The notes under the pieces are model-generated. The model saw only the letters and a program-made list of their open reading frames with translations. It had not been told where the DNA came from and searched no databases. Position numbers and translations under genes: made by a program. This document shows positions 11,557-62,834 of a DNA stretch of 64,000 nucleotides, in pieces (the stretch's first letter is position 1; each line of letters begins with the position of its first letter). The stretch comes from Mobula hypostoma (taxonomy: Eukaryota). The stretch covers positions 42,410,001 to 42,474,000 of the forward strand of contig NC_086108.1 in the NCBI RefSeq assembly GCF_963921235.1, in the 5' to 3' direction.

Positions 11557-11612
11557 TTTTTAAAAACAAAACCTTGTCCATTTTTTTCCCTTAACTAGTG
11601 TCATCTAATCCA

Positions 11613-11725
11613 GGCAACACACATCAAAGTTGCTGGTGAACGCAGCAGGCCAGGCAGCATCTCTCAGAAGAGGTACAGTCGACGTTTCGGGCCAAGACCT
11701 TTCGTCAGGACTCCTCTTGTTTGCA
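11613..11725 (-). mobile_element. Short PLE pLTR insertion with an intact hammerhead core (11677-11712, - strand)
   Basis: 12-bp TSD tcatctaatcca at 11601-11612 and 11726-11737; reverse complement AGTC CTGACGA AAGGTCTTGGCCC GAAA CGTC GACT. Confidence 0.8.
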
Positions 11726-12480
11726 TCATCTAATCCAAGCAGCTTCCTTGTAAATTTCTTCTGCATTCTCTTCAACACAATCACATACTTCCTATAGTTT
11801 GCCAATCAGAAGTGCACAGTATACTCCAAGTATGGCCAAACCAGTATTTTGTAAAATTGCAAAGTAACACCCTGACTCTAGCATTCTATGCCCTATCCTG
11901 TTAATGCAAGCATATCATGTACTTACCTTAATACTCCATCCACCTGTGTTGCCACTTTAAGAGAATTGTGGGCAGACCCCTAGGTGCCTCTGTTTGACCG
12001 CATTTCTTTGTGTCCTACTATTTACTGCAGATGTTCTACTTCTGTTTGACTTTTGGTTTTGTTTATTCAGAGAGCATAATTTTTGATTATAAAAAGAGCT
12101 CAGAAAACTTATTTCGATGAGACATTTGGAAAATCAAGTTATAATTAAAGTTCAGCACTTATGGTTCATTTTATTTCAGAAATTTGGGTGTGATATTCTT
12201 AATTGCCTTTATTCTGGTAATTGCAGAACTGTCATGTGTAATGAAGTGCCATCCATTTATATGATAAAATAAAAGATCTTAGGAACATGACATGGATATT
12301 GTCACAGGTTGCAGAATAGAGGTCGTAAATTTCTATCAGAAATTGCTGGAAATGCTCAGCAGGCTAGGCAGTGTTTATGAAGTGAAAGTCAATGTTTCAG
12401 ATCAAAGGCTTTCTATTATTTTAAAAAAATCACAACGTTATGATTTTATTGCAAAAGTTGGTTATAAATCTAAATGATAG

Positions 12481-15722: not shown

Positions 15723-17505
15723 CATTTCCAAGAAAAAGTTTGTGAACTCTTTACCTGGTTTTCTGCGTTAATTGCTCATAAAATGTGGTCTGATCTTCAT
15801 CTAAGTCACAATAGTAGACAAACGTAAACTGCCTAAACTAATAACACAGGAACAATTGTACTTCTCATCAATACTGAGTACACCATTTTAACTATTACAG
15901 TCAAGGTTCAAAAATGTGTGTGATCTTCTGGAGTAATGCCATCTACCAAAGCTACTGTATTTGGAGTCAGGTGTTTCATTCAATGAGATGAGATTAGAGG
16001 TGTGGGTTGTAAAGGTGCCCTCCCCTATTTAAAAAAAAGACACACAGAGTCAGGTTACTGACTGCCTGCTCTTCTCAAGAAAGATCTGTTTATGTGCATC
16101 ATGCCTTGATCAAAACAAATTTCAGAAAATCTTAAAAGAAGAATTGTAGGGATGCGTGAAGCTGGAAAAAGCTATAAAAGCATTTCTAAAGATCTGAGCA
16201 TTCATCAGTAAGAGAAATGTTCTACAAATGGAGGAAATTCAGTACTGTTGCTACTCTTCCTAGGAGTGGGCATCCTGCAAAGATCACACCAAGAGCATAA
16301 TGTGCAATGCTGAAGGAGGTGAAAAAGATCCCAAGGGTAACAGCAAAAGCTCTGCATTAGTCTCTAGTACTTGTAAAAGTCTCTTCCACTATAAGAAAAA
16401 CGGTGAACAAGTATGGTGTTCATGGAAGAACACCGTGGAGGAAGTTACTGCCCTCCAAAAAACAACATTGCTGCACATCTCAAGTTTGCGAAATGTGTTC
16501 CACAATTGTTCTGGGACAACGTTCTGTGGACAGATAACACAAAAGTTGAACTTTTTGGCAGAAATGCACACTGCTATGTTTGGAGGTAAAATGGCACCAA
16601 AACCTCATCTCAACTGTTAGCCATGGTGGAAGGAGCATCATGGTTTGGGGCTGCTTTGCTGCCTCAGTTTGTGGACAGCTTGTAATCGTTGCGGGAACAA
16701 AATTCAAAACTGTATCAAGACATTTTATAGGAGAATGTCAGGGTAGCGGTCCGTCACCTGAAGCTTAATAGAAGTTAGATGATGCAACAGGACAATAATC
16801 TGTAACACAAGAGTAAATCAACAGCAGAATGGTTTAAAAAGAACAAAATTTGTTATTTGGAATGGCCAAGTCAGAATCCAGACCTTAACCCAGTTGAAAT
16901 GCTGTGGCAGAGTGCTGTTCATGCAGGGCATCTCAGAAATATTGATGAACTGAAATAGGTTTGTATGGAGAAATGGTCTAAAATTCCTCCTCACTGTTGT
17001 GCAGGTCTGATCAGCAGCTGCAGGAAATATGCAGCAGGCCAGGCAGCATCTCTAGGAAGAGGTGCAGTCGACGTTTCAGGCCGAGACCCTTCGTCTGACG
17101 AAGGGTCTCGGCCTGAAACGTCGACTGCACCTCTTCCTGGAGATGCTGCCTGGCCTGCTGCGTTCACCAGCAACTTTTATGTGTGTCGCTTGAATTTCCA
17201 GCATCTGCAGAATTCCTGTTGTTTGAGCTACATGAAGTGTTTGATGGAGGTTATTGTTGCTAAAAGGAGGTTCTACCAGTTATTAAGTACAAGGGTTCAC
17301 ATTTTTTTTCCAGCCTGGACTGTGAATGATTGAACAATGTGTTCAATAAAGACATGAAAAGTATAATTGTTTGTGTGTTATTAGTTTAGACAGATTGTGT
17401 TTGTCTGTTATCGTGATTTAGATGAAGATCAGACCATATTTTATGAGTAACTAATGCAGAAAACCAGGCAATTGCATAGGGTTCATAAACGTTTTCTTGC
17501 AACTA
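15723..17505 (+). mobile_element. Degenerate Tc1 transposon (family B)
   Basis: TA flanks and long inverted ends; frameshifted transposase (VLWTD, GSIMVWGCF, QQDN, WPSQNPDLNPVEMLW); interrupted by a PLE palindrome. Confidence 0.85.
17030..17225. repeat. Palindromic PLE pLTR mini-insertion, 65-bp arms centred on 17096
   Basis: 17031-17095 is the reverse complement of 17097-17161 (1 mismatch); 3' tail to 17225; degenerate TSD at 17016-17028 and 17226-17238. Confidence 0.9.
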
Positions 17506-26405: not shown

Positions 26406-26535
26406 AAACATAGAAACTTAGAAAACCCACAGCACAATACAGACCCTTCAGCCTACAAAACTGTGCCGAACATGTCCTTACCTGAGAAATTACCTAGGGT
26501 TACCCATAGCCCTCTATTTTTCTGAGCTCCATATA

Positions 26536-26757: not shown

Positions 26758-27220
26758 TATCATAGTCACACACTCATCCACACAGGTTTTAATGAAGTTG
26801 GTGACAACTGTGGCGTACTCATCCAGACTCGAAGGTGACTCCCTGAACACAGTCCAGTCCACCAATTCAAAGCAGTCCTGTAAACGCTCCTGTGCCTCCC
26901 TGGTCCATACCTTCTTGGCCCTCACTACTGGTGCTGAATTTTAATATACTTCTCATTTTGAATTACGTTACTCAGTATTTTGTATGTTTTACACCTCGGA
27001 CCTAGAGGAACGCTTTCTTGTTCAGCCGTATCTATGTATGGTTGAATGATAATTAAAATTGATTTGATCTGATTGATTTGAAGAGGCAATGACCCACTAC
27101 CGATCAACCTCTAGGCACATTTCCCTGCACCCGCCCCAAATCGTCCTCCCTCACTATTATTTAGCAGTCCTTCCAGGTGAGGTAGCACTTCTTATATGAA
27201 TCCATCAGTGACATTTATTG

Positions 27221-28594
27221 CAGTGGTCCCCAACCACCGGGCTACGAGGAAACGATGTGATTTGGCGTTAGGAGTCAGCTGCACCTTTTCTCATTCCCTG
27301 TCACGCCCACTGTTGAGCCATTACGCATGCGAGGTCATGACCCACGCGTTATCCGTGTCAGCGTGGGAAGGAGATCAACTCCTCGAGCTTGCAAATGACA
27401 GCGGGCTGAAAAGTATATTTGACATAACATCAAACTCAAGGCTAAATATCCTGACGTAGCCACGAAAGCACTGACAATGTTGCTTCCATTTCCAACATTT
27501 TTCTGCGAAGCGGAGTTTTCTGCAATGAATGCAACGAAAACTAAATTGCGGAATAGACTGGACATAAGGAACCCCCTTCGAGTATCGCTGTCTCCCATCA
27601 CCCCTCGATGGCATCGACTTGTTGCAGGAAAATAAGCCCAGGGCTTTCACTGATACAGCGATATTGGTGTGTTGCAATGATTTTATATGTTCATACGAGA
27701 AAAATATGTGCTGTGTGTTTAATATCCAAACGTTACCTAAAATGTTATGATGCTATTGACTTACCTATATAACCATATAACAATTACAACACGGAAACAG
27801 GCCATCCGTGCCAAACGCTACTCTCACCTAGTCCCACTGACCTGCACTCAGCCCATAACCGTCCATTCCTTTCCTGTCCATATACATATCCAATTTTTCT
27901 TTAAGTGATAATATTGAACCTGCCTCAACCATTTCTACTGGATGTTCGTTCAATACTTACTTCAAGCTCCCCTGATAATTGACTTACCACTATATTCGTG
28001 CGAGGAAAATATGCGTTGTGTGTTTATTATTAAATTCGTTAGATAAACCCTTTTAGAAACGAAATTGAGTGTATTAGCTATTTATCACCTATATAACAGG
28101 AATTCTGCAGATGCTGGAAATTCAAGCAACACACATAAAAGTTGCTGGTGAACGCAGCAGGCCAGGCAGCATCTCTAGGAAGAAGTGCAGTCGACGTTTC
28201 AGGCCGAGACCCTTCGTCTGACGAAGGGTCTTGGCCTGAAACGTCGACTGCACCTCTTCCTAGAGATGCTGCCTGGCCTGCTGCGTTCACCAGCAACTTT
28301 TATGTATATCACCTATATTCTGGTCGTGATTAATTCCCTCCCCCCGAACAGAATTACCAAAAAGGATTTGCGGGGGGGCGGGGGGGAGAGGAATCGGCAG
28401 GTCACGACGCGCATGCGCACTGGTTCTCACGCAAGGCTTCATGGTCATTGTAGTCTATCTCTGGGTAAACACAACCTATTTGACTGCTAGTCTTGTCCGT
28501 TGGCAATCCTACCCCACGCCCTGGGTCGGCCGGTCCACAAGGATATTGTCAATTTTAAACCGGTCCGCAGTGCAGAAAAGGTTGGGGACCCCTG
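27221..28594 (+). mobile_element. hAT/Charlie-type non-autonomous transposon
   Basis: TIRs CAGTGGTCCCCAACC / GGTTGGGGACCCCTG; perfect 8-bp TSD atttattg; transposase C-terminus LLPFPT..CEAEFSAMNATKTKLRNRL. Confidence 0.9.
28095..28306. repeat. Palindromic PLE pLTR mini-insertion, 86-bp arms centred on 28219
   Basis: 28133-28218 versus 28220-28305 inverted (2 mismatches); perfect 12-bp TSD tatcacctatat at 28083-28094 and 28307-28318. Confidence 0.92.
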
Positions 28595-28739
28595 ATTTAT
28601 TGTATCCAGTGCTCCCGGTGTGGCCTCGGCCTTCCATTGCAGATAAACAGCCTTTTTAACATTTAATGTAGCATTTTCAACACTTTTTTTCTCTGTAACC
28701 CCGCGATTGTTTTATTGCTGCCTTTTTCTTAGCCATTGA

Positions 28740-29110
28740 AACATTACTTTCCCCGCAACTCCTCAGATTCAGAGGCTTCGTTCCGCATTTTCTACGTTAC
28801 GACGGACGTACTACGCAAGACAAGGACTGGCTGAACGCAACTGCGTCGATCATGCGTCTGACGAAGGCAATGAGCAGCCTAGTGGATGGTAACGTTCTGG
28901 TGAACTTGTACGGGTTTAACGGTAAAGTCTTATGTCGCTGTTTTTCGTATTTGGTCGCACCTTCTGTATTTCTTGGTCGTCGTAACCCAAGCTGCTGCGG
29001 TTTCTGATTTCCTGCTATTAACGAGCTTGTGAACTCAAGGCAGTACGAGTTTGAACCCATTGTGTTCCTCTCAGCCTCACCTTCAAACGCTATGTTGAGC
29101 GTTGACGTTG
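28740..29110 (+). promoter_or_regulatory. CpG-rich unique segment; putative CLCC1 promoter and non-coding exon 1
   Basis: Locally dense CpGs in non-TE sequence; candidate donors ggatg|gtaacg (~28888) and aacg|gtaaag (~28921); the CLCC1 ATG exon begins with an acceptor, so an upstream exon is needed. Confidence 0.5.
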
Positions 29111-33419: not shown

Positions 33420-33991
33420 CCACCAGAGAAAGCAGGATCTCCCAGTGGCCACACGTTTTAATTCCACATCCCATTCCCATTCTGACATGTCTATCCACGG
33501 CCTCCTCTACTGTAAAGATGAAGCTACACTCAGGTTGGAGGAACACCTTATATTCCATCTGGGTAGCCTCCAACCTGATGGCATGAACATCGACTTCTCT
33601 AACTTCTGCTAATGCCCCACCTCTCCCTCGTACCCCATCCGTTATTTATTTTTATACACACATTCTTTCCCTCACTCTCCTTTTTCTCCCTCCGTCCCTC
33701 TGACTATACACCTTGCCCATCCTCTGGGTTCCCCCCCCCCCGTTCTTGTCCCATGATCCTCTCATATCCCCTTTGCCAATCACCTGTCCAGCTCTTGGCT
33801 CCACCCCTCCCCCTCCTGTCTTCTCCTATCATTTTGGATCTCCCCCTCCCCCTCCCACTTTCAAATCTCTTACTAACTCTTCCTTCAGTTAGTCCTGACG
33901 AAGGGTCTTCGCCTGAAACGTCGACTGTACCTCTTCCTAGAGATGCTGCCTGGCCTGCTGCGTCCACCAGCAACTTTGATGTGTGTTGCTT
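33420..33991 (+). mobile_element. Penelope-like element 3' fragment
   Basis: Highly similar to ~2375-2962. Confidence 0.88.
33891..33926 (+). ncRNA. Minimal type I hammerhead ribozyme motif (PLE), intact core
   Basis: AGTC CTGACGA AGGGTCTTCGCCT GAAA CGTC^GACT. Confidence 0.78.
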
Positions 33992-61253: not shown

Positions 61254-62834
61254 CAGTGACATGCAGAAGTTTGGGCACCCCGGTCAAAATTTCTGTTGCT
61301 GTGAATAGCTAAGCGAGTAAAAGATTAACTTTATGCCTTTTGAAAATCAGTTCAAGATGACACATTTCTTTAATATTTTAAGCAAGAAAACTTTTTTATT
61401 TCCATCTTTTACAGTTTCAAAATAACAGAAAAGGAAAAGGGCCCGAAGCAAAAGTTTGGGCACCCTGCATGGCAGTACTTAGTAACACCCCCTTTGGCAA
61501 GTTTTCAATTCTTGTTTGGGGGATTTTCGCCCATTCTTCCTTGCAAAAGGCTTCTAGTTCTGTGAGATTCTTGGGCCGTCTTGCATGCACTGCTCTTTTG
61601 AGGTCTATCCACAGATTCTCGATGATGTTTAGGTCAGGGACTGTGAGGGCCATGGCAAAACCTTCAGCTTGCGCCTCTTGAGGTAGTCCATTGTGGATTT
61701 TGAGGTGTGTTTAGGATCACTATCCTGTGTAAAAGCCATCCTCTTTTCATCTTCGGCTTTTTTACAGACGGTGTGATGTTTGCTTCCAGAATTTGCTGGT
61801 ATTTAATTGAATTCATTCTTCCCTCTACCAGTGCAATGTTCCCCGTGCCACTGGCTGCAACATAAGCCCAAAGCATGATTGATCCACCCCTGTGCTTAAC
61901 AGTTGGAGAGGGGTTCTTTTCATGAAATTCTGCACCCTTTTTTCTCCAAACATACCTTTGCTCATTGTGGCCAAAAAGTTCTATTCAAAAGGTTCAAAGG
62001 AATATCAAAACAAGCCTGATGCATTTTGGAAACAAGTCCTATGGACTGATGAAGTTAAAATAGAAATTTTTGGCCACACTGAGCAAAGGTATGTTTGGAG
62101 AAAAACAGGTGCAAAATTTCATGAAAAGAAACCCTCTCCAACTGTTAAGCACGGGGCTGGATCGATCATGCTTTGGACTTGTGTTGCAGCCAGTGGCACG
62201 GGGAACATTTACTGGTAGAGGGAAGAATTAATTCAATTAAATACCAGCAAATTCTGGAAGCAAACATCACACCATCTGTAAAAAAAAAAGCCGAAGATGG
62301 AAAGAGGATGACTTCTACAACAGGATAATGATCCTAAACACACCTCAACATCCACAATGGACTACCTCAAGAGGCGCAAGCTCAAGGTTTTGCCATGGCC
62401 CTCACAGTCCCCTGACCTAAACATCATCGAGAATCTGTGGATAGACCTCAAAAGAGCAGTGCCTGCAAGACGGCCCAAGAATCTCACAGAACTAGAAGCC
62501 TTTTGTAAGGAAGACTGGGCAAAAATCCCCCAAACAAGAATTGAGAGACTTAACTGGCTACAGAAAGCGTTTACAAGCTGTGATACTTGCGAAAGCAGGT
62601 GTTACTAAGTACTGCCATGCAGAGTGCCTAAACTTTTGCTTTGGGCCCTTTTCCTTTTTTATTATTTTGAAACTGTAAAAGACGGAAATAAAAAAGTTTT
62701 CTTGCTTAAAATATTAAAGAAATGTGTCATCTTTAACTTTATGCCTTTTGGAAATCAGGTCATCTTTTACTTGCTTAGCTATTCACAGTAACAGAAATTT
62801 TGACCAGGGGTGCCCAAACTTTTGCATGCCACTG
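61254..62834. mobile_element. Fold-back Tc1 (family A): two transposase 3' halves in inverted orientation
   Basis: TA at both flanks; PDLNIIENLWIDLKRAV on both strands; junction ~61985-62058. Confidence 0.9.

Follow-up and report, generated by a model that had tools for sequence, protein, structure and literature searches.

At the locus under study a short palindromic insertion lies within a DNA transposon, and both sit in a window (the whole 64-kb stretch of DNA that was analysed) rich in related repeats. The features are these, with TSD denoting target-site duplication, TIR terminal inverted repeat and PLE Penelope-like element.

27221–28594, no strand assigned: host non-autonomous hAT with 15-nt TIRs (14/15 complementary) and an exact 8-bp TSD at 27213–27220 and 28595–28602
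28083–28094, plus strand: left TSD copy of the insert, an exact match to 28307–28318, 9/12 bases A/T
28095–28132, minus strand: PLE 'tail' of 38 nt, at this end only, between two modal family 3' ends (offsets 128 and 89)
28095–28218, minus strand: tailed arm, a 5'-truncated PLE 3' end covering offsets +1 to +124 from U4, 97.6% identical to the native copy at 908–1036
28219, plus strand: central unpaired T, which is U4 of the untailed arm's hammerhead core by comparison with the native copy at 2869
28218–28306, plus strand: untailed arm, a PLE 3' end from C3 to offset +86, by sequence comparison
28307–28318, plus strand: right TSD copy, 12 bp

The two arms of the insert (28133–28218 and 28220–28305) are 86 nt each and differ at two positions, 28184 and 28206, both transitions; they flank the single unpaired T at 28219, and the left arm is longer by 38 nt, reaching 28095. 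Read as PLE 3' ends, the arms overlap by a 1-nt microhomology, the C at 28218. Folded as DNA, the palindrome reaches −117 kcal/mol (z −26.6), a stability equalled by 0/200 shuffles. The 12-bp TSD, a short duplication at an AT-rich site, has a chance probability of about 6e-7 when five offsets are allowed, and the hAT sequence is continuous across the insertion site. The 86-nt arms, the exact 12-bp TSD and the location inside a hAT, all given in the initial annotation, were thus borne out. As a microRNA precursor the hairpin was rejected, its best Rfam score being 46.5 bits where the gathering score is 88, with generic hairpin matches.

The 1.37-kb host element is presumably a hAT, a name that we take from its TIRs, its 8-bp TSD and the features of the family. 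Its ORF at 27375–27752 had no Pfam match, and no second copy of the element, which might have offered an empty site, was found in the 64-kb window. The 8-bp TSD of the hAT reads as coding PLE sequence on both sides and the GIY-YIG reading continues across it, so that the locus is a three-level nest in which an old PLE GIY-YIG fragment (27099–27220 and 28595–28630) contains the hAT and the hAT contains the young PLE palindrome. The same hAT carries a second insertion of about 200 nt at 27755–27994, between similar 17-nt words at 27755 and 27978, which resembles a CR1 LINE 3' end. Outside the hAT, 640 nt downstream of the palindrome, 28848–28867 holds a 13-nt match to the palindrome centre that lacks the second hammerhead box and is probably due to chance.

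At a score of at least 14 and a loop of at most 11 nt, only one other local palindrome occurs in the 64-kb window.

17031–17225, no strand assigned: sister palindrome, 65-nt arms at 17031–17095 and 17097–17161, 1 mismatch

Here the tailed arm lies on the plus strand (17095–17225), places the long arm on the right and owns the central T (17096), and the untailed arm on the minus strand stops early, at offset +65. The TSD is degenerate (13 nt with 3 mismatches, 17016–17028 and 17226–17238) and more mismatched than the arms (3/13 versus 1/65; Fisher P 0.014), possibly reflecting an error-prone junction. In both palindromes one arm is native as far upstream as C3, the other reaches only G5 and a single base is common to them; the native U4 is kept by the tailed arm at 17096 and by the untailed arm at 28219. 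The initial annotation had already recognised the shared centre, the unequal arm lengths (86 versus 65), the tails on opposite sides and a centre that reads T at 17096 and A at 28219 along the long arm, and we agree on each point.

It had also favoured separate insertions over simple duplication, with shared flanks as the contrary sign, and the different hosts, the unrelated flanks and the separate TSDs confirm this view. Between the 2-kb flanks of one palindrome and those of the other there are no more than chance matches of 14–31 nt, so the pair is not a segmental duplication. Identical centres are what such a duplication, or an assembly or read fold-back artefact, would produce, yet we consider any explanation of this kind very improbable because the flanks are unrelated, the host elements differ, the TSDs are separate, the tails fall on opposite sides of the centre, the arm mismatches are private and the hAT runs on across the site. 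A read fold-back artefact in particular would seem hard to reconcile with a hAT that continues past the site, a TSD, mismatches between the arms and a tail at one end only. A comparison of arm likeness within and between copies, proposed at the same time, does not separate the readings (over offsets 1–65, 1 and 2 differences within copies and 1, 1, 2 and 2 between them). What the earlier description, right on the geometry, did not include is the identity of the arms as PLE 3' ends, the tail as a published PLE feature and the position of the centre in a hammerhead core.

Each palindrome consists of two copies, head to head, of the 3' end of a GIY-YIG PLE from a ray-type genome. This non-coding sequence is assigned through its arms, which share 97–98% identity with the 3' UTR downstream of a GIY-YIG ORF in the window. 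Twelve arms at nine loci in the window carry the 90–130-nt PLE 3'-end unit, and the family makes up about 8% of the 64 kb. Pfam recognises GIY-YIG on 2216–2566 (23.1 bits against a cut-off of 22.6), and 11 longer proteins match the PLE ORF fragment, including ray proteins at 93% (Mobula) and 79–85% (Hypanus). The best of them, P0001 (93% identity), spans an RT motif through GIY-YIG in a single ORF and is colinear with the window copies; this match and the GIY-YIG domain above the Pfam cut-off mark the family as an EN+ PLE. A C-x4-C-x2-C linker in the ORF at 1457–1834 and in P0001 agrees with the CX2-5CxxC motif of the Neptune RT-EN linker. On this Cys linker we provisionally class the family as a Neptune-type EN+ PLE, noting that Nematis is also described as having a Neptune-type linker motif (PMC8557442). 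Three of the matched proteins (P0004, P0010 and P0011) are PLE ORF fragments inside a predicted ray DIPK1C isoform, neuromedin-U receptor 1 and an ABHD14A isoform, probably through contamination of these gene models by a very common repeat.

The family is very high-copy: in four public runs from three organisms the native copy was matched by 189,276, 154,602, 47,009 and 13,277 contigs, and given this abundance the initial suggestion that many such palindromes exist genome-wide is plausible. Patterns of the arm or of the centre had 0 matches in viral contigs, metagenome contigs and prokaryote genomes, as expected for a vertebrate repeat. When contigs were aligned against the native copy at 870–1450, two modal ends with unrelated flanks stood out among the best 24 of 2281 rows, one at 908 (452 contigs in run X1, 374 in X8 and 71 in X5) and one at 947 (347 in X1 and 275 in X8). 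Measured downstream from the palindrome centre they lie at 128 and 89 nt, 39 nt apart. A minor end point is possible at 967–968 (offsets 68–69; 2 of the 12 junction rows listed). PLE tail length has been described as the distance between two RT start sites (PMC11167929), and the 39-nt interval between the modal contig ends is this tail. The insert at 28095–28306 ends 4 and 3 nt inside the modal ends (offsets 124 and 86 versus 128 and 89), which places one of its ends at each RT start. Standard PLE insertions are described as inverted 5'-truncated copies with a one-sided 30–40-bp tail and a short TSD (PMC8557442; PMC3846280; PMC2377424; PMC8969392), and the insert likewise consists of adjacent inverted 5'-truncated copies with a tail, here of 38 nt, at one end. 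That it is an inverted PLE insertion we regard as practically certain. We rejected a MITE or foldback DNA transposon, the ends being asymmetric (a 38-nt one-sided extension) and matching retroelement RT start sites.

Strand-change joints at U4 were absent from the best 15 of 201 contig joints listed, among which 902/1383 was the only opposite-strand joint. Joints at 1041 (offset −5) recur; these, and likewise a drop in contig depth upstream of the hammerhead, were left out as evidence of truncation, other subfamilies diverging upstream. In run X8, joints 1041–931 and 1041–968 are multi-copy tandem junctions at offset −5 with the same extra base (G on the RNA strand). This extra G, at offset −6, weakly suggests that a capped RNA 5' end lies there; an in-window example of it is explained by an inverted tail.

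The centre of the palindrome coincides with U4 of the family's minimal type I hammerhead (native core 2868–2895). The core pattern has 6 exact matches in the window where 0 are expected by chance, and over 8 copies helices I and II are 93.8% and 90.6% paired, against 11–48% in slid registers, so that the pLTR of the family carries a minimal hammerhead motif. No covariation or compensatory pairs were found in helices I and II over the 8 copies, an Rfam search returned no hammerhead match and the isolated motif folds no better than shuffles. The predicted cut site lies 26 nt downstream of the centre, which implies that the template was uncleaved RNA; a centre at the cut site itself is ruled out by the same distance. 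In the untailed arm of the insert the catalytic boxes are intact (28218–28245), but sequence of the other arm stands where the 5' strand of helix I would be. In the tailed arm the core pattern is unmatched and the core broken, because A stands in place of U4. Helix I together with an intact CUGANGA box, as an active hammerhead would have, is not present in the insert, and judged by the loss of helix I in both palindromes, neither ribozyme should cleave. With no coding capacity, a disabled ribozyme and no evident function, the insert is an ordinary dead repeat.

In 4/7 same-family loci (11607, 17096, 28219 and 38294), counted in one window chosen for its palindromes, the 5' boundary falls within offsets −5 to +1, a clustering with P ≤ 5e-5 under exponential truncation with means of 100–800 nt; if both palindromes are counted as one, it is 3/6 with P ≤ 8e-4. 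The count leaves out two diverged loci whose boundary is at −5, as their upstream sequence differs and the boundary may mark subfamily divergence only. Two of the counted loci are non-palindromic and begin at −4/−5. The boundary near U4 may be set by an RNA 5' end, by splicing or by a stall. Upstream of the hammerhead (2845–2867, 33872–33894 and 1038–1060 on the minus strand) we observed a branch-point-like word, a pyrimidine tract and two close AG, a 3'-splice-like arrangement resembling the end of the Drosophila virilis Penelope intron, described at helix I (PMC4209133).

Other loci in the window show how the family integrates.

908–2963, no strand assigned: longer head-to-head insertion of the same subfamily, our native reference, with RT thumb, Cys linker and GIY-YIG fragments
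11607–11725, no strand assigned: third head-to-head insertion, its untailed arm starting at offset −5 (the 5' edge of helix I)

The insertion at 908–2963 has a tail on the left only and a 13–14-nt TSD with 1 mismatch. Its plus arm encodes P0001 residues 33–95 and 268 onward, with an internal jump at about 2261; its minus arm begins at residue 118, and the arms overlap by about 3 nt at 2072–2074. Residues 33–95 are missing from the minus arm, which means that the arms are separate cDNAs and not the product of fold-back. At 11607–11725 the tailed arm amounts to just 13 nt of inverted tail end, attached to the untailed arm within an exact 12-bp TSD (11601–11612 and 11726–11737). Altogether, 4/9 hammerhead-bearing loci in the window are head-to-head within one TSD, and exactly one end is tailed in all four. 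A TSD search found none at 4/8 loci (10824, 24246, 33417 and 38294), 63641 being left out. Elsewhere in the window, 61349–62738 consists of nested long inverted repeats (135–154-nt blocks, 93–97% identical) related to Tc1-like ends at 26534 and 29370, and is probably a long-TIR Tc1-type element with an internal deletion.

We consider it somewhat probable that the insert at 28095–28306 was made anew from two cDNAs, primed on both target strands and joined at a preferred stop. The order of events would be as follows. The PLE protein would cut both strands 12 nt apart at an AT-rich site in the older hAT, and each free 3' end would prime reverse transcription on element RNA. One cDNA would start at the outer RT start, which gives the tail, and the other at the inner start about 39 nt upstream, which gives none; both would halt at a preferred point, the 5' edge of the hammerhead core. 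One cDNA would then cross the other's 3' end through the 1-nt microhomology, leaving U4 in one arm and not in the other, and fill-in would create the palindrome and the TSD. Since either cDNA might be the bridging one, both the 17096 type (U4 kept by the tailed arm) and the 28219 type (U4 kept by the untailed arm) could arise. This reading draws support from the neighbour at 908–2963, which used two templates. Against it, obtaining the same 1-nt centre from two independent joins needs a very reproducible stop, and the U4 site is not the best predicted point of annealing or snap-back. Over the last 500 nt, near-U4 stops (−3 to −5 kcal/mol) are beaten by the hammerhead cut site (+24, −8.2 kcal/mol) and by +52, so that a centre placed at the strongest hairpin or self-annealing site is unsupported by the predicted energies. 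At U4 the native sequence contains a 3-bp inverted match around a 2-nt centre, a register used by neither palindrome, and the two-cDNA route would have bypassed it. The short arm at 17096 also ends at +65 and not at the modal +89, with a TSD worse than its arms; in these two respects the 17096 event was resolved differently from the one at 28219.

Self-priming has been proposed for PLE junction palindromes (PMC3846280), and in the present case a cDNA would fold back where the native sequence has its small inverted match, at the 5' edge of the hammerhead, the tip being trimmed or mutated afterwards. We judge this distinctly unlikely for the insert at 28095–28306, even though it explains perfect symmetry about one base and the native site, with 5/6 pairs, ranks in the top 4 of the 19 small quasi-palindromes in 543 nt. 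The predicted snap-back is unstable with the 3' end at U4 or C3 (+2.9 and +1.0 kcal/mol), and the native match predicts a 2-nt centre. A fold-back copy is never longer than its template, so the tailed strand must have been made first and should carry the native base at the turn. It does so at 17096, where fold-back fits without extra steps, the arm end there being non-modal as well. At 28219 the turn base of the tailed strand is non-native and would need a transversion or an untemplated base. Nor does fold-back predict that the short arm should end where it does, 3 nt from the second RT start. The +65 end and the poor TSD of the 17096 copy suit fold-back or truncation. The initial idea of independent fold-back at one nucleotide is thus upheld as to separate events, and taken literally fits 17096 and not 28219.

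Alternatively, the palindromes could descend from a founder whose 1-nt centre arose once and which became a non-autonomous master. Priming of its hairpin RNA would take place on the sense arm, at each of the two start sites, and a cDNA running through the centre would anneal to the other by their long self-complementarity; since either could cross, both centre types would result. A single origin would account for the identical non-native centre, which the U4 site, not being thermodynamically favoured for de novo joins, makes attractive; the early end (+65) of the 17096 short arm would be ordinary 5' truncation, and both palindromes belong to the same young PLE subfamily (diagnostic sites at offsets 18, 32 and 82). 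Even so, we regard such descent as doubtful. Relative to the long coding copies no variant common to both palindromes was found, every variant being private, and the short arm at 17096 is the majority sequence of those copies; the lack of a shared derived variant would also be expected from an exact-copy founder. A long hairpin RNA template is expected to show heavy A-to-G editing. With only 1 A-to-G change for about 25 + 39 adenosines per strand in the duplexes, no sign of such editing is seen. Moreover, the two non-palindromic loci with boundaries at −4/−5 point to a stop near U4 that requires no palindromic master. Two cDNAs joined at this stop are the reading that we prefer, in a comparison of U4 centres that covers two palindromes.

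An inverted, one-side-tailed, TSD-flanked PLE insertion is of a published kind. A U4-fixed centre or reciprocal ownership of the central base was not found in the open literature, a scope that leaves aside most subscription journals and Repbase. Tentatively, and with the balance against it, the U4-centred palindromes could be either a self-propagating, hairpin-shaped non-autonomous PLE derivative or a record of two-ended integration with a fixed stop. If the former is true, they would be the retro-equivalent of a MITE, with two-ended priming from one hairpin RNA and either strand owning the central base. If the latter is true, they would decide between antisense self-priming and twin priming and would show a stop fixed at the 5' edge of the hammerhead. 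These mini-palindromes bear on how PLEs complete integration, from second-strand synthesis and the source of the head-to-head junction to the part played by the hammerhead, and leave an insertion with just three points to read, its outer ends and its centre. Should the pattern of two copies hold over thousands in ray genomes, a tally of where the centre lies, which arm owns it and where the short arm ends would tell self-priming from two-ended priming, and a functional boundary would be mapped at the 5' edge of the hammerhead. From two copies, the U4 centre with its reciprocal ownership gives a small but usable clue to the integration step.

In L1 twin priming a second cDNA starts from the second target strand and joins the first at microhomology, and an inversion results within one TSD. 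The route proposed here resembles it in the second-strand-primed cDNA, the microhomology joint and the single TSD. The L1 cDNAs copy different parts of one RNA, whereas the arms of the palindrome copy the same 3' end from starts 39 nt apart.

Among PLEs, EN+ insertions of the Pen2a_Av type likewise have a head-to-head 5'-truncated copy, a tail at one end and a palindrome at the inverted junction (PMC3846280). They differ in that at 28095–28306 the whole insert is palindromic (212 bp, no ORF), with the turn at U4 in two loci, and the 28219 locus misfits the self-priming model proposed for them (PMC3846280). TSDs of 8–10 bp are described for Adineta PLEs (PMC3846280; PMC8557442; PMC2377424), against 12 bp here. 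The protein of PAc (Poseidon of Anolis) cuts and extends both strands of an AT-rich target in vitro, with two internal RT starts bounding the tail and an uncleaved hammerhead RNA as template, and is modelled as a dimer (PMC11167929). The ray family agrees with PAc in its one-sided tail between two RT starts, its AT-rich site and its uncleaved template; it differs in that PAc belongs to the Poseidon clade and the ray family has the Cys linker of Neptune/Nematis, and the PAc account, as far as the accessible text goes, includes neither a cDNA joining step nor a palindromic product (PMC11167929).

Minimal type I hammerheads have been described in the pLTRs of metazoan PLEs, as dual motifs 100–700 bp apart, on opposite strands, with many solo (PMC4209133). 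The ray hammerhead is like these in its catalytic boxes, its 4–5-bp helix I, the extra base before helix II and the lack of a helix III beyond the palindromic core, and differs in that helix II is only 4 bp and in that the palindromes lose helix I, one core also lacking U4 (PMC4209133). Non-LTR retrozymes, as reported, are likewise non-coding, hammerhead-bearing derivatives of PLE pLTRs (10.64898/2026.07.22.740005). We rejected a retrozyme as the identity of the insert, which has no direct tandem units with a complete hammerhead: retrozymes are direct tandem repeats with intact ribozymes, whereas 28095–28306 is an inverted pair with disabled ones (10.64898/2026.07.22.740005).
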